Below, in pieces: positions 44,453 through 63,136 of a DNA stretch of 64,000 nt. A model generated the notes under the pieces. That model was not told where the DNA came from. It saw nothing but the letters and a program-made list of their open reading frames with translations, and did no database searches. Both the position numbers and the translations under genes were made by a program. The stretch comes from Gammaproteobacteria bacterium (GTDB taxonomy: Bacteria > Pseudomonadota > Gammaproteobacteria > SZUA-140): contig JBHHVB010000006.1 of NCBI GenBank assembly GCA_046754065.1, forward strand, positions 11,080-75,079. The letters run 5' to 3'. Every line of letters begins with the position of its first letter. Position 1 is the first letter of the stretch.

Positions 44453-45880
44453 CTAAAATGCCGTAGGTAGTGAGCTTGAATTCCCCGTGGAAATGTCTTT
44501 TAACAGCAACGTGCCCAGATCAGTTCCATCTGTTACCCATGGCTCCAGCCCATTTACACCATCGTCGGCCCAAAAAAAGACCAGATTACCCAGACTGGCG
44601 GGTAACTGAATATCTGAATTCACTACACCGGGATAAATATCCTTCACTAGATTGGTGCCCAGTTCGGTACCGTCACTAACCCAAAGCTCTTTACCGCTGG
44701 ATCCATCATTAGCAATAAAAAACAATTTCGAATTTGAAACAGTTAACATCGTAGGAATTGACCATTCAAATCCACCCCTGATATCTTTAACAAGCTGGGT
44801 CCCATTCGCAGAACCATCCGTCTTCCAAAGCTCCTCACCCGTATTACTGCTGTTAGCCCGAAACATTAATGTGCCGTTTACGTCGACCAAAGCATCCTGA
44901 TCAAACTCTGCTCCACCGGGATTTACGATGATCGTTCCCGCTTGTGAACCGTCGCTTATCCAGAGCTCCTTGAAGTTAATACTGTTCGTTGCAATAAGAA
45001 ACAGGCTGCCTCCCGAAGCCGTTAACTCTTTCGGAAATGATTCCCCGCTACCAGTCTCTATATCCCTAACCAGCTCCGTTCCCGGCCAGGTTCCGTCACT
45101 TTTCCACAGTTCCCTGCCATACAAACCGTTGTCTGCAGTAAAAAATAACGAACCAGCGACATTGGTCAAATCCGCCGGCATTGAACCGTTTGGCCCAGGA
45201 TAAATGTCTCTTACCATCATTGTTGTTAAACTTGAGCCATGACTTACCCATAGCTCATTACCGTTAACGTCTTCGTCTGCTGTAAAAAACAGTTGTCCAT
45301 TAGATTCAGTCAGATTGGCTACTGCTGGTGATTGCGCCAATGAATCAAAACTTTTAAGCAAAACGGTACCTGCATTCGTACCATCACTGAGCCACACTGC
45401 AACGCGGCTGGCGCTATTTTCTGCAACAAAGTACAACACTCCTCCAGCAATGGTTAAATGATGAGGGTTTGAGCTGGGCTTACCGGTGAATATATCTGCG
45501 ACGAGAACGGTGCCGGCATCCGTTCCATCTGACTTCCATAATTCGTAACCGCTGGAGCCATCGTCTGCAACAAAAAATAACGTGCCATTCAAATCAATAA
45601 ATTCACCCGGGTTGGAGTTCCCCAACCCCGGGTTAACATCCTTAACCAGGACAGTTCCAGCCGGACTACCGTCAGACTTCCAAAGTTCGATACCACTGGA
45701 TTGTGTACCAGCGGCAAAAAAAACGGCATTGCCCACAGCAGCCGGTTGGGGAAGATACCCATCAGGGAAACTTTTGGTATCGTTGTTTTCCAGATTTTCA
45801 AGTGTACAGGCACTTAAATACAGCAACAGCAATAGCACTGAAACTATTTTAGCGTGATAAAGTGTCGATAAATTACCCAT
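44453..45880 (-). CDS. ELWxxDGT-repeat lipoprotein (about nine repeats of ~48 aa)
   Basis: There are nine copies of [ELW][KVI][ST]DG[ST]xxGTxLVKDIxxG, for example ELWKSDGSPAGTVLVKDVNPG and ELWVSDGTELGTNLVKDIYPG. I prefer the start at the Met at 45878-45880, 4 nt after the trmB stop. That gives the signal MGNLSTLYHAKIVSVLLLLLYLSAC with a lipobox. Confidence 0.8.
   Translation of the reverse strand: MGNLSTLYHAKIVSVLLLLLYLSACTLENLENNDTKSFPDGYLPQPAAVGNAVFFAAGTQSSGIELWKSDGSPAGTVLVKDVNPGLGNSNPGEFIDLNGTLFFVADDGSSGYELWKSDGTDAGTVLVADIFTGKPSSNPHHLTIAGGVLYFVAENSASRVAVWLSDGTNAGTVLLKSFDSLAQSPAVANLTESNGQLFFTADEDVNGNELWVSHGSSLTTMMVRDIYPGPNGSMPADLTNVAGSLFFTADNGLYGRELWKSDGTWPGTELVRDIETGSGESFPKELTASGGSLFLIATNSINFKELWISDGSQAGTIIVNPGGAEFDQDALVDVNGTLMFRANSSNTGEELWKTDGSANGTQLVKDIRGGFEWSIPTMLTVSNSKLFFIANDGSSGKELWVSDGTELGTNLVKDIYPGVVNSDIQLPASLGNLVFFWADDGVNGLEPWVTDGTDLGTLLLKDISTGNSSSLPTAF
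44456..45742 (-). repeat. Tandem intragenic repeat region (period about 144-150 nt) encoding the ELWxxDGT repeats
   Basis: The periodic recurrence of the ELW..DG..GT..L.KDI motif is visible in the translation. The repeats are divergent at the DNA level. Confidence 0.7.
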
Positions 45881-46601
45881 ATACCCGGACTGGACCATGG
45901 TAGCGGTACTTAATATCCCAGACACCATGCCCCAATCGATGCCCTCGATGCTCAAATTTGGTTTGCGGCCGGTCTTCTGGTCTGGGTATATAATCACCGT
46001 CTTCGGAGACGTTCTCAAATTGCTTGCAGGATGAAAGCACCTCTATCATATGCTGTGCATAATCCTGCCAGTCAGTCGCAAGGTGCACAATCCCTCCTTT
46101 CACCAGTTTACTACCCAGCAGCGAGATAAATTCGGGTTGAATCAGTCGTCTTTTGTGGTGCCTTTTTTTCGGCCAGGGATCCGGAAAGAAAATTCGAACT
46201 GCATCAATAGAATGGCCAGAAATCATTTGCTCCAGCACAGTTACCACATCTTCATTGATGACGCGCACATTTTGGATATTATGGCTTTCCAGTTCGCACA
46301 GTAATTTACCCACGCCTGGCTTATAAACGTCTACCCCAATAAAATTTTTCTGTTGATTATTGATGGCAGATTCCAGTAAAGACTCCCCCATACCGAATCC
46401 AATTTCGAGAATTCTGGGCGCACTTCTTTGAAAAATTTCATCCAGATCTATTATCTGATTTTTACAATCGATTCCATATCTTGACCAGGATTCAGTCAAC
46501 GCTTTTCTTTGCGCCTTCGTCATGCGACCTTCACGACGAACAAAACTACGAACTGTTCGCAACACCGCTGGTGTGCGGTTCTCTAATTGCTCAACTGACA
46601 T
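45873..46601 (-). CDS. trmB: tRNA (guanine-N7)-methyltransferase
   Basis: It has LEIGFGMGES and FFPDPWPKKRHHKRR motifs. I prefer the start at the Met at 46599-46601, after the thiG stop at 46609, rather than the track start at 46700. Confidence 0.9.
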   Translation of the reverse strand: MSVEQLENRTPAVLRTVRSFVRREGRMTKAQRKALTESWSRYGIDCKNQIIDLDEIFQRSAPRILEIGFGMGESLLESAINNQQKNFIGVDVYKPGVGKLLCELESHNIQNVRVINEDVVTVLEQMISGHSIDAVRIFFPDPWPKKRHHKRRLIQPEFISLLGSKLVKGGIVHLATDWQDYAQHMIEVLSSCKQFENVSEDGDYIPRPEDRPQTKFEHRGHRLGHGVWDIKYRYHGPVRVYG

Positions 46602-46608
46602 TGATGAT

Positions 46609-47442
46609 TCAGAAAAATGTTCCGTCCAGTGGTGATGAGGCACTCGCAAACCGTTTGCGGGGGATACGACCCGCCAGATATGCCTCACGCCCGGCTTCAA
46701 CTGCCTTTTTCATTGCTGAAGCCATCAGGACTGGATCCTTCGCGCCTGCAATCGCGGTATTCATCAACACGCCATCGCATCCCAGCTCCATTGCAATCGC
46801 TGCATCTGACGCAGTTCCTACACCGGCATCCACCAGAATCGGCACATTAGCATTTTCGATAATTGTAAGAATATTATGGGGATTTCGTATACCGAGCCCA
46901 GATCCAATCGGTGCAGCCAACGGCATCACAGCAACACAGCCCAGCTCTTCCAAACGCTTTGCTGCAATCGGGTCGTCATTGGTATAAACCATTACCTTAA
47001 AACCTTCCTTAACCAGTGTCTCAGTCGCCACGTAGGTCTGATCGACATCAGGGTACAATGTCTTCTCGTCACCAAGCACTTCCAGCTTGACCAGATCATG
47101 TCCATCGAGAAGCTCACGTGCGAGACGGCAGGTTCTCACCGCATCTTTAGCACTATAACAACCCGCGGTATTTGGCAACAAGGTGTACTGATCAAGAGGG
47201 ATTACGTCAAGCAGATTAGGTTCATCTGCATTTTGGCCAATGTTTGTCCGCCTGATCGCAACAGTAACAATCTGTGCACCACTAGCCTCCGTTGCCAACC
47301 GGGTTTCCTCCAGGTCTTTGTATTTACCTGTTCCGACCAGCAACCGGGAATGATAGTCTTTACCTGCAATAGAAAAGGTGTCTTGCCCATTACTTATAGC
47401 TGATTTATTTTTCATATAATTATTGAATGCTAATTCGGTCAT
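46609..47442 (-). CDS. thiG: Thiazole synthase
   Basis: It has [29 protein letters not shown] and LMNTAIA motifs. Confidence 0.95.
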
Positions 47443-47476
47443 CTAGTTACCCAATTGTGTTATAACGATTATGTAT

Positions 47477-47677
47477 TCAACCACCGCCAATGGCTTGAAC
47501 TATTTCGACTTCATCCCCTTCCTTAAGAACAAGGGTACTTAAACTGCTTCTCGGCACAATTTCCAGATTTATTTCAACCGCGATCCGTTTATTTTGGAAT
47601 CCCGTTTCGGCTAATAATTCTGCAGCGGTGATACCTGCTGCAACCGTTTGCGATTGACCATTTACAAATAATTTCAT
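47477..47677 (-). CDS. thiS: Sulfur carrier protein ThiS
   Basis: It is 66 aa, has a ubiquitin-like pattern and a C-terminal GGG, and lies upstream of thiG. Confidence 0.9.
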   Translation of the reverse strand: MKLFVNGQSQTVAAGITAAELLAETGFQNKRIAVEINLEIVPRSSLSTLVLKEGDEVEIVQAIGGG

Positions 47678-47776
47678 TACTAATAGTTCCCAAAGCCAAT
47701 ATATCCGCCATTATACCGTTATAAACCAGATCTAAAAGGGATAAGCGTTGTATTTTGCGGGAAAGTACGGCGTTGA

Positions 47777-49912
47777 TCAGTGTTTTTCGGTTAACAGGGA
47801 AGATATCATTTTCGACATCCTGTCAAAATCGATCGGTTTGGTCAGATACCCCTTTACGCCTTGCGCAACCGCATCATCCTCATTGACGTTTTCGCTGAAC
47901 CCGGTGCACAGTATGACTGGTAATTCGGGATTTAATTTGAGCATTTCATGGGTCAATTCGATCCCCGTTAGTTTCGGCATGGTTTGATCAGTAATCACAA
48001 GATCAATCCCATGCGTGTCAGCCTTGAACAGATATAAAGCTTCTCTGGGATCATTCGTAACCGCCACATTGAATCCATTATTGAGCAACATTTCCGACAA
48101 AAGACCTGTGATCGCCTGTTCATCATCAACTACCAATATATTTTTACCGGCTATTGATTTTTCGACACCGGCGGTGGTCTGATGATCTTCCGCACCATTT
48201 AGGGATTCAGATCCTGTTAGGGATTCAGGTCCTGTGGATGGCGGGAACAATATATGAAAGATAGTGCCTTTGCCAATTTCGGATTCGACAAGGATATGCC
48301 CCCCGTATCGATGCAGAATACCATGCACAGCTGCCAAACCCATACCGCTGCCCTTTCCAACCTCCTTGGTTGTATAAAAGGGATCAAAGATATAATCCAG
48401 CTGATGTTTTTCGATACCAGTGCCGGTATCTTTAATTAATAGCTCAACAAAAGATCCCGACAACGGGGCGCAACAGGATATACAACTTTCGCCGTTCAGC
48501 TCTGTTTTTTGAAGGCTAACATCCATTTCACCCTCCCCGTCCATCGCATCTCTTGCATTGATACAAAGATTCATAATCACCTGTTGAATCTGAACCGGGT
48601 CCGAATCGATCAACGGCAACCCCGGTTCGATGTATTGATTGATGACCATGCTCGATGGCAACGTTGACTGAAGCATTTTAATCACTCCCTTGATAACCGT
48701 TTGCAACCCAATTCTTTGCGTTACCGCCGCACCACCGCGACTAAAAGCCAGCATTTGCACCACCAGGTTACGGGCCCTTTCACCAGCGGAGCTGATCTCA
48801 TACAAATACTCGGCGAGCTTGCCACGTTTATCCGGCACATACCGATCCAGAGCCAATCCGACATAACCGAGGATGCTGGCCAGTATATTATTAAAATCAT
48901 GGGCTATTCCGCCGGTAAGGTGGCCAATCGCTTCCATTTTTTGCGCTTGTAACAACTGCCGTTGCAATTGTTCCTTTTCCCCCTCCGCCAGTTTTTCCAC
49001 TGTCTTGTCACGTACGACCACTATAAACCTGCGCTTTCCTTCCAGCACACTTTCTCCGATTGAAATCCCCACAGGAAATTCGGTCCCGTCAGACTTAACA
49101 CCTGTGACCTCCCGGGATCCTTGCCCGATAATGTGCTTTTCACCGGTACGTAAATAGCGCTGTAAATATTGTTGGCGATTCTCACGATCCTCAGCAGACA
49201 AAAACAATCCAATACTGTGACCTATGATCTGTTCACGACTGTATCCAAAAATTTGCAACGCAGCGGGATTGATTGAATCTATGATTCCCGCCTCATCAGC
49301 AGATATGATTCCGTCCACAGCGCTGGCAAATATGGCTCGAAGTTCACTCTCGGCTTTATCTCTGTTTTGCTGGGCACGAATGGCGACAATACCGTAGGCA
49401 AGATCATCAGCAAGACCCTGCAACAGGCTCACTTCATCGTCAGAAAATACGTCAGGTTTCGTCGCATAAATATTTAATGCCCCAAAAACCTCCCCGTTAT
49501 CTATCAACGGTAATGCCAGAGAAGATTGAAATCCGCGATTCTGTTCATCCCTACGCCATGGCGCGTAGCCTGATTGTCGGCTAATATCTGTTACCGCAAC
49601 TGACTTTCCCGTTCTAATGGCCTTACCGGTTGGTCCTTGACCGAATTCATTATCTGCCCAACTGATTTTTATGTTTTTTAGATAACCCGCATCATATCCA
49701 GCGGAGGCAATTGGTTTAACACTCCTTTTTTTATCTTTTTCCGCGAATCCTACCCATGCCAACCGATAACCTGTTTTATCAACGACGATCCCGCAAATAG
49801 CCTGAATCAGTTCTTCTTCATTTCTTGATCGGATCAGAGCGCGATTCGCTTCACTAACCGCAGCCAACGTTCGATTTAAACTCTGGACCAATTTTAGTTC
49901 ACTCTCTGGCAT
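47777..49912 (-). CDS. Hybrid sensor histidine kinase (GAF-PAS-HisKA-HATPase-REC), cytoplasmic
   Basis: It has a GAF-like N-terminus, a PAS domain (DGIISADEAGIIDSINPAALQIFGY), the H-box TGGIAHDFNNILASILGY, the N-box NLCINARDAM, the G-box GKGSGMGLA and a C-terminal REC domain (ILVVDDE...ITDQTMP). Confidence 0.9.
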   Translation of the reverse strand: MPESELKLVQSLNRTLAAVSEANRALIRSRNEEELIQAICGIVVDKTGYRLAWVGFAEKDKKRSVKPIASAGYDAGYLKNIKISWADNEFGQGPTGKAIRTGKSVAVTDISRQSGYAPWRRDEQNRGFQSSLALPLIDNGEVFGALNIYATKPDVFSDDEVSLLQGLADDLAYGIVAIRAQQNRDKAESELRAIFASAVDGIISADEAGIIDSINPAALQIFGYSREQIIGHSIGLFLSAEDRENRQQYLQRYLRTGEKHIIGQGSREVTGVKSDGTEFPVGISIGESVLEGKRRFIVVVRDKTVEKLAEGEKEQLQRQLLQAQKMEAIGHLTGGIAHDFNNILASILGYVGLALDRYVPDKRGKLAEYLYEISSAGERARNLVVQMLAFSRGGAAVTQRIGLQTVIKGVIKMLQSTLPSSMVINQYIEPGLPLIDSDPVQIQQVIMNLCINARDAMDGEGEMDVSLQKTELNGESCISCCAPLSGSFVELLIKDTGTGIEKHQLDYIFDPFYTTKEVGKGSGMGLAAVHGILHRYGGHILVESEIGKGTIFHILFPPSTGPESLTGSESLNGAEDHQTTAGVEKSIAGKNILVVDDEQAITGLLSEMLLNNGFNVAVTNDPREALYLFKADTHGIDLVITDQTMPKLTGIELTHEMLKLNPELPVILCTGFSENVNEDDAVAQGVKGYLTKPIDFDRMSKMISSLLTEKH

Positions 49913-50373
49913 ATCAATATTTACCTGTCACCACACACACGATCGGCGCGGTTATCCGAATTGACATTTACTAAGCAGGTTATTGCTAACAGGCACAAAA
50001 ATCTGGTCGGCATGACGACCGAAAATCCTGTCTGAACAGAATGGGTAGCTAGTTCCAAACGCAGAATGGACATCTGCAAGAATGGGTAAAAAAGAACGGT
50101 TGCTTGATTGTCATATCGCCTGTTTCTCCGAAAAGCAATTAAACACCACACCATGAGTAATCACCGTACCTCCATTTGACATACAATTACGACACCAGCT
50201 TTGGAAGATGCTATCTGGGTTAGAAAGTTTATCAGCAGGATACAATAATAACCACACATATTCGCATGGTAATAGCCGTACTGATTAGCCGATGACCTCG
50301 GATCAGGGTACTGGTCTCAATTAAACTAGCGCCGGTATTCGAGTGTCGAAAGGTATAGCAATGCAGTTATGTT

Positions 50374-52143
50374 TTAACTGCTGTTTGCCTGGGCAGGCTT
50401 TAAGGCATGGTTTTCTGAGAGAACAGTTGCCATTACCCTGATCAGCAGATCCATATTCAGCGGCTTGTCCAAAAAATATTCGATGCCTAACTCCCTGGCT
50501 CGCTCTCTGTTAATATCATCTGTATAGCCACTGTACAGGATAATGGGTATATCTGGTCTCTTTTGGAACATAACTTGAGCCAACTCTACTCCGGAAAGCG
50601 CAGGCATGGTTTGATCCAGAATAACAACATCAACATTTTCACTGTTCATTGAGAACCAGGTCAGCGCTTCCCGACTATCAGATTCATAAACAACCCGACA
50701 ACCTTTGGACTCAAGGAGTTCCCTGACGAAATTCCCCACCGCCTGTTCGTCATCCACTATTAATACCTTACCGGTCAGCTTGTCAATGTTAACCTGTGAG
50801 CCAAGGTGCTCGTGTTCAACAACGACATCCTCGGCAACTGTTGCCTTCGGAAACAACACTCTGAATTTCGAACCTTTCTCCGGGACCGATTCGACGATGA
50901 TATGACCATGATGTTCATGTAAAATGCCATGCACCATCGATAACCCCATCCCGGTTCCCTTACCAACTTCTTTTCGGGTGAAAAAAGGATCAAAAATCAT
51001 CTCAATCGTATTCGAGTCTATGCCATGCCCGTTATCCTGAACAACCAACTCGGTATACTCGCCAATAATCGTTTCATGACAGGACGAACAAGGTTGAGAT
51101 TCAATAAACACATTCTCGATAGAAAGTGTAATTCGTCCGTATCCATCCATCGCGTCTCGCGCATTGATACACAGATTCATGATAACCTGATCCAGCTGAA
51201 CTGGATCTATCACGATCATGCCAGCCTCACTATCAAATCGCTTTACAATTTCAATCGAAGAGGGCAGGGTCGCTCGAATCATCTGAATCGCTCCAGTTAC
51301 AGAGGGTTTCAAATAAATTGTTTCGCCACTGGATTTAGCCCCTCGACTAAAAGCAAGCATTTGCGCAATCAAATCCCTTGCTCGTGCACTGGACCGATAT
51401 ATCTCTCCCAGATACTTTGCCATTCGCTCATCACCATTCTTTGCATTAAGCTCACGTGCAAGTTCGGTGTACCCCATAATAGCTGCCAACATATTATTGA
51501 AGTCGTGTGCAATACCACCGGTCAACTGTCCAATCGCCTGCATCTTCTGTGATTGGCGAAGCTGTTTTTGCATCATTTGTCTCTCGGTAATATCCCGCCC
51601 ATAAACACTCACATACCCTTCTTCTTCTACTGGGCAAATGACAAAATTAAATACGCGATCATCCAATTCGTGTTTGACCTCACAAACCTCGCCATTATCA
51701 TTGCGACAAAACAGGTTTAACTCCTCTTTGGCCAAGGTTCGCCGATCACCTTTGAACAAATGTTTTAGTAAGGATTCGCTCGATGGATTAGCGTACATGA
51801 GCTGACCATCCTTGCTAAAACGTAATACTGGCTGAGGATTCTCATGAGGGAAACTGGCCAGACTTTTTATCTTCTCCTGAGATTTCAAGAGCTCCTGCTG
51901 ATAATCATTGATAGCACGCACCATATGATCAAATCCCGTTGCAAGTTCGTTGATCTCCCTAAACGGAGATTTGACTGCTATCGGCGTGTAATTACGCTTA
52001 CTAACACGCTCATACGCTTTGGTTATCAATATAAGCGGATTAATCATTCGGTTGATGATTAACAAACCTGAAAGGGACACCACAAAAATGATTAACACGA
52101 TGATAACGCCAATTTCAAACAATTCCTTGTATATTGGCTTCAT
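50374..52143 (-). CDS. Hybrid sensor histidine kinase, C-terminal portion (TM-HAMP-PAS-HisKA-HATPase-REC) of an apparently split gene
   Basis: It starts with a TM helix plus a HAMP-like linker, then has the H-box TGGIAHDFNNMLAAIMGY, NLCINARDAM, GKGTGMGLS and a REC domain. The upstream ORF supplies the missing TM1 and periplasmic sensor domain. Confidence 0.85.
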   Translation of the reverse strand: MKPIYKELFEIGVIIVLIIFVVSLSGLLIINRMINPLILITKAYERVSKRNYTPIAVKSPFREINELATGFDHMVRAINDYQQELLKSQEKIKSLASFPHENPQPVLRFSKDGQLMYANPSSESLLKHLFKGDRRTLAKEELNLFCRNDNGEVCEVKHELDDRVFNFVICPVEEEGYVSVYGRDITERQMMQKQLRQSQKMQAIGQLTGGIAHDFNNMLAAIMGYTELARELNAKNGDERMAKYLGEIYRSSARARDLIAQMLAFSRGAKSSGETIYLKPSVTGAIQMIRATLPSSIEIVKRFDSEAGMIVIDPVQLDQVIMNLCINARDAMDGYGRITLSIENVFIESQPCSSCHETIIGEYTELVVQDNGHGIDSNTIEMIFDPFFTRKEVGKGTGMGLSMVHGILHEHHGHIIVESVPEKGSKFRVLFPKATVAEDVVVEHEHLGSQVNIDKLTGKVLIVDDEQAVGNFVRELLESKGCRVVYESDSREALTWFSMNSENVDVVILDQTMPALSGVELAQVMFQKRPDIPIILYSGYTDDINRERARELGIEYFLDKPLNMDLLIRVMATVLSENHALKPAQANSS

Positions 52144-52150
52144 GATGTCA

Positions 52151-53032
52151 TCATAATTTATCTCGGATACGACCCCCCCAACTCACTGTTTTCACCGGGG
52201 TAATAACACCAAACACCTCATTCCCTTTCAATCCCTGATATTCATTTTTACTTTGCCATTCTTTCCCGGTAAAAAGACTACGAGTAATTGGCATATGAGT
52301 CATCAAATCTCCGGATTGGTATTTATTATTTTTTGGCGCTGTCATCAGCGAACCTCGCCTATCAACCAGATAGGTCAACGTGCGCTGATCAGATAAAAAA
52401 TGATCAACACTTTCCCAAAATGTATTTACAGCAACTTCCGCCAGTAACACAGCCACAACATTTTCTGCGGTACCTACAGGTACTGCAATATGGAAATTCC
52501 AACCTCTACCGTGTGTCTCGTGCACTGGACCAATATACGTTCTGCCATACAATGGAACCGCCAATTCAGGTGAGAACCCATCTGGTTTTGAGTCATCCGA
52601 AAACGGCCAATAATCATAATTTTCAATGAACTCGTACTGGACTGAATTTTTGTCATACCGATCCCGGTCCAAACTGGACAGGACATGCCCTTCAGGAGCC
52701 AGAACTGCCAAAGCGTTAAGGGAATCCTCGCGCCGAATTGCGCCATACAACAGGTCTTGTATCAACGAGTGGTCACTATGTTTTAGCAACATACTGTATG
52801 CAATAGCATCACTTTTATTTTGGAGTATTGAAACAAGTTGTTCCACACGCCTTTCAATATTCAAAGAAATCTCTCCGTTAACGCGCTTTTTTTCAAAAAG
52901 CGCTTTGTCCAGATAATTAGACTTCAGAATCGGAATCAAAGAAGCGGTAGAAATTATCAACAAAGACACACCACTAAGAAATATAAGGCTATACCATGCT
53001 TTTTTTAATGACATTGTTCCAGCAGAGGTCAC
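52151..53032 (-). CDS. TM1 plus periplasmic Cache-like sensor domain, the N-terminal portion of the split kinase
   Basis: It has a TM helix (AWYSLIFLSGVSLLIISTASLI) and a ~250-aa extracytoplasmic domain with a Cache-like pattern (VAVLLAEVAVNTFWESV, TYLVDRRGSLMTAP). It ends 7 nt before the next ORF, just after a G7 run. Confidence 0.75.
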   Translation of the reverse strand: MTSAGTMSLKKAWYSLIFLSGVSLLIISTASLIPILKSNYLDKALFEKKRVNGEISLNIERRVEQLVSILQNKSDAIAYSMLLKHSDHSLIQDLLYGAIRREDSLNALAVLAPEGHVLSSLDRDRYDKNSVQYEFIENYDYWPFSDDSKPDGFSPELAVPLYGRTYIGPVHETHGRGWNFHIAVPVGTAENVVAVLLAEVAVNTFWESVDHFLSDQRTLTYLVDRRGSLMTAPKNNKYQSGDLMTHMPITRSLFTGKEWQSKNEYQGLKGNEVFGVITPVKTVSWGGRIRDKL

Positions 53033-53043
53033 ATTGATATTCC

Positions 53044-54060
53044 TTATTGTGATGAATATGCTAAAGATTGTGATAACGCTTTATTTAGAAAACGATTATC
53101 GTAATAAACGGTCATATCGACTGGCAGCGTATCCCATAGACGCATCTCAACCATTTTTTCAGACATTTGCTGAAGGTCTTTCTCCGTCATCATCATATCT
53201 GAGTAATCAATCCAATCGGGTGGAGTTGTCAATACTTTCTCGAATACAGATGCTGCCGATCCTGTATAATCCTCCCCCATCGCCGCAGAAATTTTAGGAT
53301 TACTCTCGATAAATTGACCACTTTTAACAAGCACGTTAACTAACTCCTGCAACTGCTCAGGGTGGCCCTCGATAAAGTGGTCACTGGCGATGAACACGTG
53401 ATCCATATGATCTTTCCAGATTTCTGGCGAAATAGCTGCCATCCAACCCTCCCCCATTGATATCGACTTATTCGCCTCAGGCTCTCCCACCACAAATCCA
53501 TCAATCTCGCCTTGCTTCATGGAGTTAATCATATCTCTCGGCGGCATGGCGACGACACTTATCTTGTTATGATCCACATTGTGTTGATCAAGCGCCAAGC
53601 GTAATAACACATGGTGCTGAGAGTAGAGATGCGGCACCGCAATAATGGATCTTGTGCGGTTTAGGTCATTTATTGATCTGAATTTGTTGGACAGCACAAA
53701 ACTATTGCCATTGCGGTCCGCCTTCAGCACAATTTTCGCCTCCAGGCCATTTCGGATCAAATCCATCGCTAACGGAGAGAGAATAAAGGTACCCGCTAAC
53801 TTACCCGATCTCATATCGTCAACCACGTCGTTCCAATCATGGTTTTGTATCGTTTTTAGTTGAAACGTTTTTAAATCCTGTTGAAACCGTTTTTCCACGA
53901 TAGCCAACGGCAAATGACCACCACAAATTAACCTGCCGATATTTACGATAGGCTTGTTAGTATTGGGCAGGGAGCTTCCTGGTTGAGTTTCGCAGCCAAC
54001 CAAAATTGCCAATGCTGTAAACAAAACGAGTATTCTTTGTACACTATCCATATATTTCAC
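53044..54060 (-). CDS. Periplasmic solute-binding lipoprotein (NMT1/THI5-like, NitT/TauT-type ABC SBP fold) without cognate permease or ATPase genes
   Basis: It has a lipoprotein signal (LFTALAILVGC) and a type-2 SBP-like sequence of 338 aa. It sits directly upstream of the Cache sensor kinase. Confidence 0.65.
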   Translation of the reverse strand: MKYMDSVQRILVLFTALAILVGCETQPGSSLPNTNKPIVNIGRLICGGHLPLAIVEKRFQQDLKTFQLKTIQNHDWNDVVDDMRSGKLAGTFILSPLAMDLIRNGLEAKIVLKADRNGNSFVLSNKFRSINDLNRTRSIIAVPHLYSQHHVLLRLALDQHNVDHNKISVVAMPPRDMINSMKQGEIDGFVVGEPEANKSISMGEGWMAAISPEIWKDHMDHVFIASDHFIEGHPEQLQELVNVLVKSGQFIESNPKISAAMGEDYTGSAASVFEKVLTTPPDWIDYSDMMMTEKDLQQMSEKMVEMRLWDTLPVDMTVYYDNRFLNKALSQSLAYSSQ

Positions 54061-54101
54061 ACCCGCGCTAACCGGTTCATAATTGACTCACTACCGTCGT
54101 T

Positions 54102-55712
54102 CTAGCCATCACTAAATATTTCACTAATTTTATTTAATAGTTCATGCGATGGAACCGGCTTCATAAAAAATCCGCTAATACCCATTTTATAGGCCTTGTC
54201 TTCATCAATCGTTTCACTAAAACCAGTACATAAAATCACTGGCAAATCGGGTCTAAGCTCGAACATCTTTTTAATCATCTCATCACCGGAAAGACCGGGC
54301 ATCGTTTGGTCCGTGACGACGAGATCATAAGCATCAGGATTCTCGACGAATGCATTTAATGCTTGCAAGCTATCATTTTCAACTGTGACGCGGTAATGAT
54401 TCGATTGCAGCAGATCACTCAGGAATCTGGCGAGACTAGGCTCATCATCAACAACAAGGACGTGTTCACCCGAACCTGACTGAAATCCCGAAATCGTTTC
54501 ATCTTCTTCAAGATGATTATCCGGCAGATCATGGTGCGCCGGAAAATACAATAGAAAGCGCGCACCTTCACGCTCAGAATCCAGCACAATATGCCCGTTC
54601 GTATCGTGCACAATTCCGTGCACAACCGACAAACCCATTCCTGACCCCTTCCCGACCTCCTTGGTCGTAAAGTAGGGATCAAAGAGCCGGCCTGCTGTTG
54701 CCTGGGGTATACCCTCTCCATCATCCTCGACACAGATTTCAACGTACTCGCCACTGATCATTTGACCACAGGAAGAGCATTGACGATGCACATTGTGTCG
54801 AGAGGCGACGCTAATACCAATCCTCCCCTCTCCCTCAACAGCATCTCTCGCATTGATACACAGATTCATAATGACCTGTTCCAGTTCCACGGGGTTGGCC
54901 AGAATTTTGGGAAGACGGCCTTCAACTGAAACAGTCAATTCAATACGAGATGGCAGAATTGGTTTCATGATTGAGATGATATCGCTTACAACCTCTGACA
55001 CGTCGATAAAGGGTAGTGGGCTATCATCCCCCTGGCGACAAAATGTCAACATTTTATCAACCATTACCTGCGCCCTACGACCGGATTGGTATATCTCATT
55101 GAGATAAATTGACAGCTTTTCATCGCTATCCGAACCATACTTCTCCAGAGCCAGCTCGGTGTATCCTAAAACACTAGCCAGGACATTGTTAAAATCATGT
55201 GCAATTCCACCTGTAAGCCGACCAATAGCCTCGATCTTCTGAACCTGGCGTAGTTGCAACTCGATTCGTTTTCGATCTCGCTCGGCTCTTATTCGATCGA
55301 TGATGTTTTTCATACGGTAAAATAACAAAGGCCAATTGTATGGTTTTGGAATGTAATCGATTGCACCAACCTCAAAACCGCGAGAAATGGATTCCCCATC
55401 GTCCAGCATCGTTAAAATGAGTATCGGGATATCTTCGGTTTTTTGGTTATTGGTGATACGCTGGCACGCTTCATATCCATCCATTTCGGGCATAATCGCA
55501 TCCATCAGGATAATATCGGGTATGGATGATTCCAGAATTGACAATGCTTCCAGACCATTTTCAGCCTCGACGACATCGTACCCGTGCCCGGCAAGATAAG
55601 AAACCAGGACTCGACGACTGTAAATATCGTCCTCGACCACCAATACCAGCGGCTTTTCCTCGGCATTGCTTTCTGTGCGGTTCAAATCCTTTTCATCTTT
55701 ATTCGGTATCAT
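54102..55712 (-). CDS. Hybrid histidine kinase (REC-HisKA-HATPase-REC)
   Basis: It has an N-terminal REC domain (VLVVEDD...ILMDAIMPEMDG), the H-box TGGIAHDFNNVLASVLGY, NLCINARDAV, GKGSGMGLS and a C-terminal REC domain (VLVVDDE...VTDQTMPGLSG). Confidence 0.9.
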   Translation of the reverse strand: MIPNKDEKDLNRTESNAEEKPLVLVVEDDIYSRRVLVSYLAGHGYDVVEAENGLEALSILESSIPDIILMDAIMPEMDGYEACQRITNNQKTEDIPILILTMLDDGESISRGFEVGAIDYIPKPYNWPLLFYRMKNIIDRIRAERDRKRIELQLRQVQKIEAIGRLTGGIAHDFNNVLASVLGYTELALEKYGSDSDEKLSIYLNEIYQSGRRAQVMVDKMLTFCRQGDDSPLPFIDVSEVVSDIISIMKPILPSRIELTVSVEGRLPKILANPVELEQVIMNLCINARDAVEGEGRIGISVASRHNVHRQCSSCGQMISGEYVEICVEDDGEGIPQATAGRLFDPYFTTKEVGKGSGMGLSVVHGIVHDTNGHIVLDSEREGARFLLYFPAHHDLPDNHLEEDETISGFQSGSGEHVLVVDDEPSLARFLSDLLQSNHYRVTVENDSLQALNAFVENPDAYDLVVTDQTMPGLSGDEMIKKMFELRPDLPVILCTGFSETIDEDKAYKMGISGFFMKPVPSHELLNKISEIFSDG

Positions 55713-55762
55713 TTTCCTGGCCTAGGTGCCCTTGGAGACAATACGAACGGTAAAAACCAGAC

Positions 55763-56131
55763 TCACCCCAAAACCTGATTAACTGTATTACGCAGATCAC
55801 TCATCTGAAACGGCTTCTCCATCACCGTTGCAGCACCAATCAGCTTCGCAATAGGCAAGTATTCAAAGCGTCCGGTAATTCCACCTCCACCCGAGATTCC
55901 TATAATCTTTATGTTCGGATAATCTTTTTTTAACTCAAGAATCAGGTCCAATCCGTTTTTTTCCGGCATGACCATATCGGTTATTACCAAATCGATTTTT
56001 GACTGCCTAAAGACCTGGCAAGCTTCAACGCCATTGCTGGCCTCAAGGATTTCGTGCCCGCCTCCTTCAAGCATTTCCCTAATCATCATTCGTACTGAAT
56101 TCTCGTCATCGACCACTAAAATCTTTGCCAC
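55763..56131 (-). CDS. Single-domain (CheY-like) response regulator
   Basis: It is 122 aa and has ILVVDDE, LVITDMVMPEKNG and KIIGISG motifs. Confidence 0.9.
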   Translation of the reverse strand: MAKILVVDDENSVRMMIREMLEGGGHEILEASNGVEACQVFRQSKIDLVITDMVMPEKNGLDLILELKKDYPNIKIIGISGGGGITGRFEYLPIAKLIGAATVMEKPFQMSDLRNTVNQVLG

Positions 56132-56163
56132 TGTTCACCTCATTAATGGAAAATATTTGCAAT

Positions 56164-57435
56164 TCAGAATAGCTCGATATCTCCGTTGTCAACGCTTTGT
56201 TGCTTAATTGGGTTATGGCTGGCAGCAGTCAATGACATATCCTTCTCATTCATGGTTGAACGCAGTTTAAGCTGCAGGTTTTCATACTTATCACTAACCT
56301 CAGCCAGGTTTTCCCCCTGAACGTTCTGTCCCGCTTCGTTAAGCACATTTATCAACAGGCCTAACGAATGCACGCGCTTACCTATATGGGCGATTAGCTG
56401 GCTCGTCATATCTTCAAACTGTAAAGACTGAACCGCAACGCCCACATTGTGTCCGATGGATTCGGTAATGGACGACACTTCGTTCAACTGGACAGTCATA
56501 TCCTTATTCATTGAATCCATATCAGCCATCAACTCAGATAACCGGTCTTTCGTACCCAGGGTAAGATGCAGGTCTCGTGACGCCATGGTTCCAATGATGC
56601 CGCTACTCTTCTCCATCGTTAGCCTGGTGTCTTTAAATCGTGCCTTGACTTGATCGCTAAAATGGTTGCTGCGCTCGGAAAGCGATCTTACTTCATCCGC
56701 AACCACCGCAAAGCCTCGACCAGATTTTCCAGCTCTAGCCGCCTCAATTGCAGCATTCAATGCCAGTAGATTTGTCTGGGCACTGATTCCATCAATTTCT
56801 CCCAGCATCTTATCGACCTCTTCCATTTGCCCGGTCATTTCATTCATCGCCTCTACAAGCTTCATACTGCTCTCGCTCATATCACGAATACTGTCAACAA
56901 ACATCTGAATTAAATCTGCAGCTTCCAGCGAAAATGACTTTACATCACCGTTTTCACCCGTGTGCTTGGATAAAACATTTATCACGTTATGCACAATACC
57001 CAGCTGTGTCTTTGATTCATTTTCAAGTCCTGTAAAACTCTCTACGAGTCCATTTATCGCACTCCCTTGAATATCGACTATCTGATCGAGCCCCTCATTC
57101 ATTTTCTCCAGCTGATTATTGATTTCAGCATTGGCCTGATCCTTTATTTTTTCCAGCTCTTGAACAATTTCGGTAGCACCAGGATTTGTAGAGGGCTTTG
57201 GATTATTCTCGCGCAACACGTTATCGTCTTTCCCGGAGTTCTTTAACTTTATATTCCAGGCAATGGTCATACCCAATAGGACCACCAAAACCGTAGAAAA
57301 ATCCGGCATATAGAAATATGCGCCAAACCCTGGCGGCAATAAAACATTTGGCCACCAATATTTACGAAACGAGTTTTTGGCACTCACAATTTTCCTCCTT
57401 GTCCCAATCGAGGATGCCAGTTGAGACAATGTCAT
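56164..57435 (-). CDS. Methyl-accepting chemotaxis protein-like signalling protein (short N-terminus; start may be the Met at 57309)
   Basis: It has the highly conserved MCP hairpin [40 protein letters not shown], a single TM helix and no recognisable ligand-binding domain. The track start overlaps the upstream gene by 74 nt. Confidence 0.85.
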
Positions 57436-58465
57436 CGTAAATCTTTTTACCTGAATCGTTTTCCCATAGTTCAGGCATGACTAGCATTTCGGGGCTCTCT
57501 TTAAGCACATTAATAAACCGGTTAATCAAATCAGGGTCTCTCCATCCCTGGTCTCTCTCTTCTTCTAAAACTTGTATAATCCTGGCAGTAGACATAGCAT
57601 CCTTGTACGGCCTCGCGTTTGCGAGCGCATCGTATATATCCAGTATCTGAAAAACTCTGGCAAGAAACGGAATTTGCTCACCCTTTAGGCCATCCGGGTA
57701 ACCTGTTCCGTCCCAACGTTCATGGTGATGCCGGATGATAGGAACAGTTTGCCTGATACTTTTCAAGCTACTGCATAGTCGCGCACCAATTATGGTATGT
57801 TTACGCATAACTTCCCATTCGTTCTCATTCAACGGACCCGATTTGAGCAGGACGCTGTCTGGTACTGCGAGTTTGCCAATGTCGTGTAATACACCGCCTC
57901 TTCGTAACGCCAGTATCTCCATTTCATCCAGATCCAGTAATTCGCCAAACACCTTGGCGGTATATTCGAGACGAGAGCAGTGGTCACCCGTCTGCTCATC
58001 TTTTGCTTCAACCATTCGGGCTAATGCAAATAACAGGGATTCAGCACTGTCCAGCTGATCAGTCAGTTTTTTTTGATTGACTGCCGCATCCAGTCTTGCC
58101 TGTAATTCAACCGGACTATAAGGTTTTCGGATAAAATCATTAGCACCCGCATTCAGGCTCTCCACAAGGTCATAATTTGAACTGTCACCTGTGACCATTA
58201 TGATTGGAAGCAACTGCAAACCCATTTTTTCCCTGATAATATGACATAAGGTGTTGCCGTCCGTACCGGGCATATTTTTATCGAGCAGAATCACATCCAC
58301 TTCATTCTTTTTGATAATATCCAACGCGTCGTTTGCATTGCTCGCCTCAATCACCTCATATTTTGAGTTCGACAGGATCTCGCGCTCCAGAGCACGATGA
58401 TGATCATCATCGTCGACTAACAGCACACGGATAGTATTAGGTTGAAACTGGTTCTCAAACATCAT
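57362..58465 (-). CDS. Response regulator with HD-GYP domain (putative cyclic-di-GMP phosphodiesterase, RpfG-like)
   Basis: It has a REC domain (VLLVDDDD...[12 protein letters not shown]) and an HD-GYP domain ([26 protein letters not shown]). Confidence 0.9.
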
Positions 58466-59097
58466 GACTTACTCACCGCACTTTTTGCATGACTAATCAC
58501 GTCTACTTCGGAATGTTCAAGATTATCGGTGATACCGATTGCCCGAAGTAGAACCTGTTCGTTCACTGGTTTCGCCAAACAGGTCTCCGCACCAGCACTG
58601 ATGATGCGATTGACATTTTCCTGCGTGTAATATCCCGTCATCCCGATAACCCGAACCAATTTTGTCTGTGGATCTTTTTTAATTAATTCACACACGCTGA
58701 TTCCGTCCAGACCCGGCATCTTCAGGTCCAGCAATACGCAATGGGGGTGAAAAGACCTCACCAGACTACCCGCGCTAAATCCATCTACTGCCGTTTCAAC
58801 GGAGAGGTGAGGGCCGGAACTGGTCAGAAACTCAACGAGAAAACCTGAAAACTGAACATCATCATCGATTATCAGAATTCTGAGTTCATCCGATGCCTCT
58901 TTCTTCAGCGTTAAGCCCCTGTCCTTACCGTATTGCTCAACATCCTGAATTAAGAATCGACGATGGCCTCCGGGTGTTTTATGTGCCTTCAGTCGACCCT
59001 TTTGCGCCCATTGCCGCACCGTAACGGGAGAAACCATCAGCATTTCCGCAACTTCGTTGGGCGTCAAATATTTCCTTTTTTGATCTTTAGCACTCAT
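58462..59097 (-). CDS. Response regulator with an N-terminal excisionase/MerR-type HTH and a C-terminal REC domain
   Basis: It has YLTPNEVAEMLMVSPVTVRQWAQKGRL (HTH_17-like) followed by a REC domain (ILIIDDD...VLLDLKMPGLDG). Confidence 0.8.
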   Translation of the reverse strand: MSAKDQKRKYLTPNEVAEMLMVSPVTVRQWAQKGRLKAHKTPGGHRRFLIQDVEQYGKDRGLTLKKEASDELRILIIDDDVQFSGFLVEFLTSSGPHLSVETAVDGFSAGSLVRSFHPHCVLLDLKMPGLDGISVCELIKKDPQTKLVRVIGMTGYYTQENVNRIISAGAETCLAKPVNEQVLLRAIGITDNLEHSEVDVISHAKSAVSKS

Positions 59098-59169
59098 TTC
59101 GTATTTTTTCTGTTCCGTTAGCCAAATTAGACAGCACAGAGATTGCGGTTTTTTTCAATGATCGCGCTG

Positions 59170-59203
59170 AATCGATTTAATCGATCACGTCGCTTTAATC
59201 GAT
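59170..59203. promoter_or_regulatory. Three copies of AATCGAT (palindromic ATCGAT core) upstream of the HTH-REC gene
   Basis: The copies lie at 59170-59176, 59179-59185 and 59197-59203, with spacings of 9 and 18 bp. They are 73-106 bp upstream of the start at 59097. Confidence 0.35.
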
Positions 59204-59246
59204 TTCGGCAATTTTTCATTTTCCTTTAATAATTGTGGCAAGATAT

Positions 59247-59555
59247 CTATAAAATTGTTGGAGTATCAAACCACGTCATTGACAAGGTCTTGTAACATGA
59301 CCGAAAACAAGCACAAAACCGAGGAAATTCGATTTGTCCAGTCACCCGTTCATCCTTAAATCCAGACTGATAATTAAGCCCAGGCAACTGTCTGAGAGAT
59401 CGACCGTGAACATTCCAGGTGAAACCCATGCTCTGCATTTCCATGCGTATTCCAGGTAAAATTGGCGCAATAATTGGGGAATATTCAGTCAATTTTTCCC
59501 TTAGGTAATCGAAAATGTCCAGATGCGTGTCAGAACCGACGAAGCAGCTCAACAT
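59247..59555 (-). CDS. Hypothetical ORF (102 aa), doubtful
   Basis: It is an open frame only, with a weak RBS, no recognisable motif and an in-frame stop 7 codons upstream of the ATG. It lies in a region of gene decay. Confidence 0.25.
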   Translation of the reverse strand: MLSCFVGSDTHLDIFDYLREKLTEYSPIIAPILPGIRMEMQSMGFTWNVHGRSLRQLPGLNYQSGFKDERVTGQIEFPRFCACFRSCYKTLSMTWFDTPTIL

Positions 59556-59613
59556 CGGCTTAAAAAATATGATTCAAACAGGGAGGAATTGAATTTTGGA
59601 AGGGTTGCGGGTA

Positions 59614-60021
59614 TCAGATGTGATGTTTCAGCATCTCAATGAGCCGTTTAACTTTTTCTTCAATCAGACCCCCTGACTTCCCTGAAAACCCGCTCATTCA
59701 TATGCTCCGGATCGGGAATACCCCAATCAATACGATACGCCGCACGCATGGCTGGACGCCCGTCACCGTATCCCATTGTAACCACCGCATCGTATTCAAC
59801 CTCGGGGAGTTCACTCAACGATTTTGAATGGTGGGTACCTAAATCGTATCTAGGCTCTTGCATGGTTTGAATCGCCGTTTCATCACCACCCCGGATGGTC
59901 TGGAGCCACTGCTGTATGAATTAATCACGCCTTTACCCTGAAGTTTTGCACCGGCCGCGGCCAATTGACTCCGGCATGAATTTTCCACACAGACGAACAG
60001 AACCTTTTTTATGCATATCAA
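59614..60021 (-). pseudogene. arsC: Frame-disrupted ArsC/LMW-phosphatase-family gene
   Basis: The homologous sequence is spread over three reading frames. The first gives KKVLFVCVENSCRSQLAAA...SSGSRPSGVV (CX5R P-loop). The second gives DETAIQTMQEPRYDLGTHHSKSLSELPEVEYDAVVTMGYGDG...DWGIPDP...FREVRG. The third gives LIEEKVKRLIEMLKHHI. Together they reconstruct a family-typical protein of about 140 aa. Confidence 0.7.
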
Positions 60022-60278
60022 GTTATCTCGAAATCCGGTGGATAATGATCCTGACGTGATAAGCCTTTGCTGGATTCTGGTCACAATGAGCGCTTGAACT
60101 AATTGCAAGCGCAATAGCGTTTTTCTCCATGACAGGGGAATCCATTAACCAACGATACCCAAAAGATATAATCCCAATGTAATGGTAACGATGGCTGACG
60201 CCAGTAAAACACCCACAATTATGATAGCAAATAATGGTCGCACTCGATCACCTGAGAGAGAAACGCTTCACTGATTGG

Positions 60279-60662
60279 TTAGCTACGGTCTTCCAGCACC
60301 TGTACCGGGTCATTGTTGGCTGAACAATACGTCCACAACGGCAACTTATCCGCCGGATCTAATGAAATGGTGACCTGCTCTCGACAGGTAGGACACTCAC
60401 CATAAACATTTTCCTTTGTCTCATTAACCTTGTAACGAGAATAGGCCATGATCGGGCCAGCAATCAGAAATCCGGGCACCAGAAAAAAATGCGCTATCGG
60501 AATGAACAAGGTGACGATCGCCAATCCCCATAACAGCGCGAGCAACTTGATTGCTCGTGACATTTTTTCATGAGAATCATACACAGTAAAATTTAATACC
60601 CCGGAAGTTTTCACACTATCAGAATTCTCAATAAATACGGGGCGCTGATCGGTTGTTGGCAT
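60279..60662 (-). CDS. Hypothetical two-TM protein with a C-terminal Cys-containing (CPTC...C) segment
   Basis: It is a 127-aa ORF with two adjacent TM helices and a C-terminal GECPTCREQ...YCSANN segment. The family is not recognised. Confidence 0.45.
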   Translation of the reverse strand: MPTTDQRPVFIENSDSVKTSGVLNFTVYDSHEKMSRAIKLLALLWGLAIVTLFIPIAHFFLVPGFLIAGPIMAYSRYKVNETKENVYGECPTCREQVTISLDPADKLPLWTYCSANNDPVQVLEDRS

Positions 60663-60934
60663 TGAAAGTCCTGTTTTAATATTGTTAGCCTAATACTACA
60701 GTAATACGTGCTTTAAAACGCAACCGAAATCTGGTTGCGGTTAATCTGATTTCGTTATCCAGGCACCTGCAAAACTGAAAATTACTGATTTGTGGTCTGT
60801 CCAATGCCTAGCGGAAAATATTAGAATACACATCCTTAACACCGGTTTGCAAACAAAAATAGGTGGTATTCAGACTATTGGGTCAATGTCTGAATCGATT
60901 AGCCCGGATATGATGTCGTACAAGGAATATTCAG

Positions 60935-63121: not shown

Positions 63122-63136
63122 CGATACAATTTATCA

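Follow-up and report, generated by a model that had tools for sequence, protein, structure and literature searches.

In the present study, we analysed an 11-kb cluster of signalling genes in an uncultured hydrothermal-vent gammaproteobacterium, centred on a chemoreceptor gene. The cluster lies in a stretch of 64,000 nucleotides of contig JBHHVB010000006.1, which is called the window below. An earlier note, made from the letters alone, had described ten consecutive genes forming one multikinase network around a methyl-accepting chemotaxis protein (MCP), with no histidine phosphotransfer (Hpt) domain and neither CheA nor CheW. The list of open reading frames (ORFs) gave nine ORFs instead, which represent eight genes on the minus strand from 59097 to 47777. 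The features of the cluster are listed here in the order of their transcription.

58462-59097, minus strand: HTH_17/MerR-type DNA-binding domain with C-terminal receiver (REC), 211 amino acids (aa); Pfam HTH_17 6e-14, Response_reg 1e-21
57362-58465, minus strand: REC-HD-GYP response regulator, 367 aa; Pfam Response_reg 8e-28, HD_5 8.7e-36
56164-57435, minus strand: McpA-like chemoreceptor, MCPsignal only; Pfam MCPsignal 1.6e-27
55763-56131, minus strand: stand-alone receiver, 122 aa; Pfam Response_reg
54102-55712, minus strand: REC-HisKA-HATPase_c-REC hybrid kinase, soluble, 536 aa; Pfam
53044-54060, minus strand: NMT1_2/SsuA-like solute-binding lipoprotein with lipobox, 338 aa; Pfam NMT1_2 1.5e-31, SsuA_fam
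50374-53032, minus strand: one gene for a dCache-transmembrane-(HAMP/PAS)-HisKA-HATPase_c-REC kinase, 885 aa when repaired; frameshift repair and Pfam
52151-53032, minus strand: first ORF of that gene, dCache_1 (weak), 293 aa; Pfam 28.6 bits against a cutoff of 45
52173-52179, minus strand: G7 homopolymer (C7 on the plus strand), site of the frameshift
50374-52143, minus strand: second ORF of that gene, HisKA-HATPase_c-REC, 589 aa; Pfam
49913-50373, no strand: non-coding gap of 461 bp; ORF list, no family in six-frame Pfam, nothing in Rfam
47777-49912, minus strand: GAF-PAS-HisKA-HATPase_c-REC hybrid kinase, soluble, 711 aa; Pfam

Each domain assigned in the earlier note was upheld by Pfam on the minus strand, with only weak scores for the dCache, HAMP and PAS domains of the Cache kinase. 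The eight upstream ORFs were closely packed on one strand, spaced by at most 50 bp or overlapping, and the REC-HD-GYP gene shared 4 bp with the HTH-REC gene upstream of it. The true start of the receptor likely lies at 57387, which gives a protein of 407 aa. The HTH-REC protein is probably a transcriptional output regulator. Both the LHDIGK motif and the HHExxDGxGYP-type motif were intact in the REC-HD-GYP protein, which is probably a phosphodiesterase output acting on cyclic di-GMP (c-di-GMP). By its spacing, the GAF kinase behind the 461-bp gap is a putative transcription unit of its own, with its own promoter region. The scan for promoters and terminators was uninformative, with promoter-like sites at chance level.

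The homology search with the receptor returned a compact family of MCPs of about 400 aa, 30-48% identical over nearly their full length. In the family alignment, the N-terminus formed a short hydrophobic hairpin, periplasmic and HAMP domains were lacking, the signalling tip was invariant and the C-terminus was conserved (...P.xQxxMDxGD[VI]ELF). The window receptor followed this plan: two short hydrophobic stretches were found in the first ~65 residues (with weak hydropathy, maximum 1.71), followed by a cytoplasmic MCP signalling domain with the canonical hairpin tip and no ligand-binding domain, and the protein ended in ...DNGDIELF, that is, in an x-[VIL]-[ED]-L-F tail. In F7 che clusters, the McpA-like protein is the second receptor (PA0180, VCA1088 and SO_2117). 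It has been described with a transmembrane region, no assignable heptad class and a 'highly conserved' C-terminus in which position 2 of the pentapeptide is valine, and Supplementary Table 12 of that study lists the C-termini DIELF, EVELF, EIELF, DLELF and EIDLF (PMC7184735). The window receptor was 31-38% identical to the che-cluster copies of Vibrio, Alteromonas and Sulfuricella, all of which end in D[VI]ELF; the copies compared were those of Vibrio aestuarianus, Alteromonas marina and Sulfuricella. The gene order was cheY, cheA, cheW, cheW, Aer2-like (...EWEEF), cheR, cheD, cheB, McpA (...DVELF) in V. aestuarianus and McpA (...VELF), cheY, cheA, cheW, Aer2-like, cheR, cheD, cheB in A. marina. 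Because the DIELF tail matches the published signature and the homology extends to the che-cluster copies, the window MCP is, judged by its sequence, an McpA-like receptor. It resembles PA0180 (CttP/McpA) of P. aeruginosa, VCA1088 of V. cholerae and SO_2117 of S. oneidensis in its length of ~400 aa, its membrane region, its missing sensor domain and its canonical tip, and it shares with them a tail that lacks the aromatic residue on which CheR tethering depends (PMC7184735).

As a separate observation, the A. marina locus (L130, NZ_JWLW01000006.1) carried two complete F7-type che clusters in tandem, each opened by its own McpA-like gene (EVELF and DVELF), and its Aer2-like receptors had canonical C-terminal pentapeptides (xWExF).

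Previous studies have reported that McpA-like receptors are encoded with the F7 system yet located in the F6 (flagellar) array, and that clustering of the Shewanella McpA requires CheA3 and CheW3 (PMC7184735, PMC9855816). No partner of their C-terminal tail is known, and CheR is not bound by it (PMC7184735); the role of these receptors in the ancestral F7 system has been called unclear.

We read the neighbourhoods of 12 family members and extended the survey to GTDB species representatives, which were scanned with the C-terminal, family-specific part of the alignment. The full MCP alignment had returned mostly unrelated MCPs through the universal tip motifs. The loci, designated by L numbers, were annotated with home-made hidden Markov models (HMMs) built from few seeds, and 86 of them contained a family member. 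In the pair type (44 of the 86 loci), a small stand-alone receiver directly followed the receptor. Where a pair-type locus extended at least 1.2 kb downstream, a HisKA kinase came next in 26 of 38 cases, and 25 of these kinases were receiver-bearing. In the che-operon type (29 of the 86), the receptor lay within a cheY-cheA-cheW-mcp-cheR-cheD-[McpA]-cheB operon, with CheA seen in 21 loci and CheW in 26. Most loci of this type belonged to purple sulfur bacteria in culture and to Ectothiorhodospira. Behind the operon came a CrsR-like REC-PP2C-kinase (Pfam; cf. PMC9855816) and, in seven loci, a REC-HD-GYP gene; this form with REC-HD-GYP is found in Ectothiorhodospira and Thiocystis. The che-cluster setting was also found in L129-L131.

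The small receiver of the pair type was then compared with the CheYs of the che operons. The motif ISGGGGITGRF[DE]YLPIAKL was present in 38 of the 45 receptor-adjacent receivers and in none of the 21 operon CheYs, and the window receiver showed a median identity of 54% to the receptor-adjacent receivers and of 31% to the operon CheYs. These sequence comparisons place the small receiver in a distinct 'SGGGG' family partnering McpA-like receptors; it is not an operon CheY. A sequence search of the PDB with this protein gave generic CheY/Spo0F matches only. Compared with McpA-like receptors in che clusters, the window gene is detached from the che cluster, as are those of about half of the 86 loci, and it goes together with an SGGGG receiver that is not a CheY, with a HisKA kinase carrying receivers, and with HTH-REC or c-di-GMP phosphodiesterase regulators.

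This gene order would also fit a pathway in which the HisKA hybrid kinase has replaced CheA and CheW, and in which the McpA-like receptor controls the kinase directly or scaffolds receivers through its DIELF tail, giving a new chemoreceptor-coupled two-component system that acts on c-di-GMP and transcription. To our knowledge, no HisKA kinase docks on an MCP tip, which counts against such a replacement, and we consider it distinctly improbable. Several observations point towards it: the HisKA kinase stands at the place where the che-cluster loci L129, L130 and L210 have cheA; the order of receptor, small receiver and HisKA kinase prevails in the pair-type loci, few of which have a CheA nearby; the dedicated receiver family differs from the che-operon CheYs; the conserved receptor tail has neither a known partner nor CheR binding (PMC7184735); and direct binding of an MCP to a receiver has a precedent (PMC3411652). 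However, the receptor tip was invariant across the family, as would be expected if CheA and CheW were still bound, and characterised McpA homologues cluster in dependence on CheA and CheW (PMC9855816). Moreover, some pair-type loci (L128, L216, L230, L239 and L243) sit beside che operons, and L270 has a CheA-REC in its gene string.

The two regulators at the head of the cluster recurred in the related loci. An HTH_17-REC gene adjoined the homologous MCP in nine of them, including orthologues of 49-57% identity in L125, L221, L225, L229, L261 and L270. REC-HD-GYP genes were present in the window, in L225, in L270 and in the seven che-operon loci; the orthologues, 54-56% identical, occupied the corresponding place in L270 and lay a little further off in L225. 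In L216, a REC-EAL gene took the place of REC-HD-GYP, and a c-di-GMP phosphodiesterase regulator therefore recurred with two unrelated catalytic domains. The outputs proposed in the earlier note, transcription and c-di-GMP turnover, fit these data. Two loci came close to the arrangement in the window. In L125, we found the HTH-REC (53%), the MCP (48%), the small receiver (55%) and a 536-aa REC-HK-REC kinase (50% over its full length), together with a PAS hybrid kinase and a divergent HK-REC-Hpt gene. In L270, an MCP and a 1315-aa CheA-REC (Pfam Hpt, HATPase_c, CheW and REC) were followed by the HTH-REC (52%), REC-HD-GYP (56%), MCP (37%) and small receiver (56%), so that the first four genes of the window cluster occurred in the same order. 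Each part by itself belongs to a known family, and clusters with several kinases are common; the detached combination of McpA-like receptor, SGGGG receiver, HisKA kinase and c-di-GMP/HTH regulators appears undescribed in the literature searched.

A Pfam search of 49 window ORFs, with the ORFs of 22.7-29 kb left out, detected no Hpt, CheA or CheW. The two gaps that the earlier note had singled out for an Hpt check also gave none: the six-frame Pfam search of 49880-50400, covering the gap at 49913-50373, found no family at all, and the minus-strand frames of 59080-60300, covering the region at 59098-59250 (plus-strand frames left out), contained no Hpt, CheA or CheW. The small gap ORFs at 49921-50154 (77 aa), 59247-59555 (102 aa) and 60279-60662 (127 aa) matched nothing in Pfam or NCBIfam. 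Every window ORF of at least 50 aa was also searched with a home-made Hpt HMM and by tblastn, which produced noise only, and tblastn of the window with the CheA-REC of a relative gave generic REC and ATPase matches only. In the scanned parts of the window, the F7 location of the receptor (cheY-cheA-cheW-aer2-cheR-cheD-cheB), the CheA and CheW of a minimal MCP core and the Hpt step of a multistep phosphorelay were each absent. In relatives, Che and Hpt genes were present: the receptor stood in full che operons (in distant ones), the CheA-REC of L270 contained an Hpt domain, L125 had its HK-REC-Hpt gene, and Hpt genes adjoined the receptor in L215, L268, L275 and L281. In L215, a 122-aa Hpt (Pfam Hpt 1.8e-6) came straight after the receptor, and a REC-HK-REC-Hpt kinase was also encoded.

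Separately, we observed that L268, L275 and L281 encode a protein of 108-122 aa homologous to the stand-alone Hpt of L215. Its gene comes immediately behind the McpA-like gene but in the opposite orientation, at the place where other loci have the small receiver.

The absence noted earlier thus held in the scanned parts of the 64 kb, but it was no anomaly. McpA-like receptors have been reported in an F6 CheA/CheW array encoded at an unlinked place, so an McpA-like gene without adjacent cheA and cheW is not out of the ordinary. Nor does every hybrid kinase need an Hpt, since their receivers can be internal regulators (examples in PMC3868531).

These results bear on a classical phosphorelay, in which the C-terminal receivers of all three kinases would pass the phosphoryl group to an Hpt encoded outside the window, either a stand-alone protein or a domain of an unorthodox kinase, and from there to HTH-REC and REC-HD-GYP. 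Stand-alone Hpt genes are often unlinked, which favours this explanation, as do the Hpt genes in or beside the module in the relatives named above: the Hpt and the REC-HK-REC-Hpt kinase of L215, the divergent gene of L125 and the small Hpt genes by the receptor in L268, L275 and L281. We nevertheless regard it as unlikely. Besides the missing Hpt in the scanned window, most related loci are without one, the kinase cores are CckA/VirA-like, and the receivers of hybrid kinases can regulate without an Hpt (PMC3868531).

All three kinases contained the boxes recorded in the earlier note: the H-box GGIAHDFNN, the N box VIMNLCINARDA and the G box GKG[ST]GMGL. According to Pfam and these motifs, they have the phospho-acceptor histidine, HATPase_c and DD...D...T...K receivers of class I HisKA hybrid kinases. 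Their cores were 44% identical pairwise over ~395 aa, so the kinases are paralogues, not near-identical copies. The best NCBIfam matches of the cores were CckA/VirA-like/PRK13557, all far under the cutoff. Paralogous kinases of one H-box family tend to cross-talk (PMC8175716); it is therefore plausible that the three signal into the same receivers, and the Cache and GAF kinases may, as paralogues, cross-talk into common receivers. The 536-aa REC-HK-REC kinase had a full-length orthologue of equal length, at the same position and with 50% identity, in L125. A GTDB scan with this kinase as the query gave generic kinase and receiver matches (at most 43%, mostly on REC) and no synteny. GAF/PAS hybrid kinase paralogues recurred beside the receptor module in L125, L217, L220, L228 and L261, with those of the GAF type near the module in L217, L220, L228 and L261. 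In GacS/RetS/LadS and other multikinase networks, as might occur here, paralogous hybrid kinases with different sensors could converge on shared regulators (PMC5992135, PMC8175716); the GacS type differs in having an unorthodox kinase with its own Hpt and GacA, and the scanned parts of the window have no Hpt or GacA-type regulator.

The kinase with the dCache sensor had previously been taken for a split pair of two genes. The end of the Cache ORF and the start of the kinase ORF fall around the G7 run at 52173-52179, with a +1 frameshift, and removing one G from this run restored a continuous ORF of 885 aa. The repaired protein contained dCache (30.6 bits, cutoff 45), a transmembrane helix, HisKA, HATPase_c and REC according to Pfam, with weak matches to HAMP (E=0.042) and PAS_4 (E=0.02). 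We compared the assembled contigs from four runs (X1-X4) of one hydrothermal-vent sample over the region. The G7 allele was present in two runs at 23-26x depth, and the intact G6 allele in runs X3 and X4 at 6.5-8.7x depth, together with a linked T>C change at 52104 and about a dozen further single-nucleotide polymorphisms (SNPs) over 17 kb. Since G7 and G6 are linked to other SNPs, two closely related strains co-occur in the sample, and the kinase is broken in one of them. A sequencing error behind the split gene was ruled out, as both alleles were assembled in different runs and were linked to ~14 SNPs per 17 kb. The kinase homologues in L297 and L298 aligned across the break point without interruption as a single protein. 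The intact G6 allele and these homologues showed that the supposed pair is a single gene with a frameshift, and from the sequence, the binding protein/Cache kinase module is predicted to be inactivated by the G7 slip in the G7 strain.

Over 46500-63500 of the window, the two strains of the vent sample differed by about 14 SNPs in 17 kb. The window has A where the X1/X2 contigs have G at 53663 and 59469, and it equals neither contig set exactly. Apparent 'joints' in the strain comparison were 20-28-nt matches between the paralogous kinases, not rearrangements.

The binding protein had homologues of 58-67% identity in 16 metagenome loci. In 11 of the 12 loci with room for it, the binding protein gene was followed, 27-60 bp apart, by a dCache sensor homologous to the repaired kinase. 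Permease or ATPase genes were not found beside the binding protein in the window. This combination of a conserved binding protein and a membrane kinase without a transporter is that of a binding-protein-dependent sensor kinase, with a logic like that of TorT/TorS or LuxP/LuxQ. Based on these gene neighbourhoods, the binding protein is a probable co-sensor for the dCache kinase, in agreement with the periplasmic input proposed in the earlier note. The receptor module was not found in any of the 16 binding-protein loci, and the binding protein was not found in any related receptor locus. From these neighbourhoods, the 11 kb is a mosaic of at least three modules. The view of the 11 kb as one co-conserved unit had to be given up, as the pair and the receptor module occur apart and the GAF kinase lies behind the 461-bp gap. 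Of the proposed multikinase network, the recurrence of GAF/PAS hybrid paralogues beside the receptor module stands, and integration into one co-conserved unit does not. In 80 loci retrieved around ThiG homologues of 73-86% identity, the cluster was never present by thiS/thiG. With a best ThiG identity of 86% and no cluster beside thiS/thiG, the organism has no close species representative.

Taken further, this separateness would mean that there is no integrated network at all, and that three independent modules, each with unlinked partners of its own, happen to be neighbours in a variable region bounded by thiS/thiG and asmA. The separate occurrence of the binding protein/Cache pair and the receptor module, the gap before the GAF kinase, and the absence of the cluster beside thiG in all 80 loci speak for this explanation, as do the frameshifted Cache kinase in the dominant strain and the pseudogene debris at 59660-60114 just upstream. 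On the other side, the eight upstream ORFs stand close together on a single strand, with spacings of at most 50 bp or overlaps, the three kinases are paralogues of one H-box family, and such kinases tend to cross-talk (PMC8175716), and additional GAF/PAS paralogues are found next to the receptor module in several lineages. On balance, we find complete independence of the three modules doubtful.

We therefore propose that the cluster is a mosaic of three modules with a mechanism for the first as follows, a reading to which we assign a probability of about 0.55. Module 1 (59097-54102) comprises the HTH-REC, the REC-HD-GYP, the McpA-like receptor, the SGGGG receiver and the REC-HisKA-REC kinase as a conserved unit, and may be an offshoot of an F7-type che cluster, in which mcpA stands beside cheY, cheA, cheW, aer2, cheR, cheD and cheB. 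The receptor would sit in a CheA/CheW array encoded elsewhere, as has been described for the McpA of Shewanella, Vibrio and Pseudomonas. The REC-kinase and the small receiver would form a pair resembling CheS3 and CheY3, with the N-terminal receiver of the kinase as a regulatory input from CheA or another kinase. The phosphoryl group would exit via HTH-REC to transcription and via REC-HD-GYP to c-di-GMP breakdown, and the C-terminal receivers of the kinases may be internal sinks or regulators, or feed an unlinked Hpt. Module 2 (54060-50374), the lipoprotein binding protein and the dCache hybrid kinase, is a separately conserved periplasmic sensor pair, and module 3 (49912-47777) a cytoplasmic GAF-PAS hybrid kinase. 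The links of the mechanism, namely the array elsewhere, the CheS3/CheY3-like pair, the output via the regulators and the role of the C-terminal receivers, are inferred by analogy with characterised systems.

One of these systems is the Che3 cluster of Rhodospirillum centenum, in which CheA3 phosphorylates REC1 of CheS3, and CheS3 instead of CheA3 phosphorylates CheY3 (PMC3868531). Like the window, it groups an MCP gene with genes for a single-domain receiver and for a kinase whose N-terminal domain is a receiver (PMC3868531), and the corresponding order with a receiver-bearing kinase was found in 25 of the 38 related loci. It differs in that CheS3 (REC-REC-PAS-HK) is an HWE kinase of an alphaproteobacterium and the window kinase is a HisKA kinase, so the two are not orthologous. 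The R. centenum cluster also has CheA3, CheW, CheR and CheB, and it serves cyst development without an HD-GYP or HTH-REC regulator; neither an HWE-type kinase nor a CheA-REC was found in the window, and a CheA-REC occurred only in the relative L270. In P. aeruginosa, the orphan MCP PA2573 is encoded, as in the window, next to a regulator of the REC-HD-GYP type, PA2572 (REC-YN-GYP), with a histidine kinase alongside, and two-hybrid experiments showed that PA2572 binds PA2573 in a REC-dependent manner (PMC3411652). PA2572 has a degenerate YN-GYP without detectable phosphodiesterase activity, whereas the motifs of the window protein are intact.

Several points weigh against the proposed mosaic and its mechanism. 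Only seven of the 44 pair-type loci have CheA within 8 kb, and this and the other survey counts are approximate because the few-seed HMMs missed some genes and some loci are possibly redundant. The scanned 64-kb window has no cheA, cheW or Hpt, so that the placing of the partners elsewhere is itself inferred. The parallel with R. centenum is functional and not one of orthology, given its HWE kinase and a cluster that has CheA. Finally, modules 2 and 3 may be unrelated to module 1.

The rest of the window consists of chromosomal housekeeping genes according to Pfam, including cytochrome oxidases, fpg, mgtE, the ptsP/ptsN/rapZ/hprK region, ubiA/ubiC, recG, spoT, gmk, yicC, rph, hemN, trmB, thiG and asmA. 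Rfam at gathering thresholds gave no hit in the 64 kb, including no thiamine pyrophosphate (TPP) riboswitch in the ~100 bp between the stop of the GAF kinase and thiS. Upstream of the cluster, at 59660-60114 (minus strand), overlapping ORFs of 91 aa and 67 aa together resemble a low-molecular-weight phosphatase/ArsC-type gene disrupted by a frameshift, with Pfam LMWPc matching at two places (4.3e-07); the break was identical in all four runs, and the gene is therefore a fixed pseudogene. Between the cluster and asmA, the 127-aa ORF at 60279-60662 (minus strand), a called gene in the source assembly, has a hydrophobic stretch and a CxxC...C pattern. At 9843-10376 (minus strand), a 177-aa ORF near cytochrome c and AhpC/TSA-like genes matches COX1 positions 306-427 only, the C-terminal third, and the full-length COX1 (6140-7546) lies several kb away; the ORF may represent part of a gene or else a small subunit of an unusual kind. 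The ORFs at 44453-46018 (521 aa), 40725-41843 (372 aa) and 12557-14014 (485 aa) had no Pfam match at the thresholds used.

McpA-like receptors are found in many gammaproteobacteria, including Pseudomonas aeruginosa, Vibrio cholerae and Shewanella, and the main value of the cluster lies in the lead that it gives on their function. Once the receptor family is recognised, a cluster 'lacking' Hpt, CheA and CheW is ordinary. The arrangement recurs in dozens of sulfur-oxidiser and vent lineages and ties the McpA-like receptor to a dedicated receiver family, to a HisKA kinase and, in repeated cases, to regulators that bind DNA or break down c-di-GMP. In its boldest form, the McpA-like receptor, the SGGGG receiver and the HisKA kinase would be a self-contained pathway without CheA and CheW, in which the DIELF tail docks the receiver or the kinase and the state of the array or membrane is passed on to c-di-GMP breakdown and transcription; we think this very doubtful, and if it were true, such a CheA-free pathway would be the first concrete function for McpA-like receptors. 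More generally, the arrangement yields the testable hypothesis that McpA-like receptors couple the chemotaxis array to the choice between motile and sessile life.

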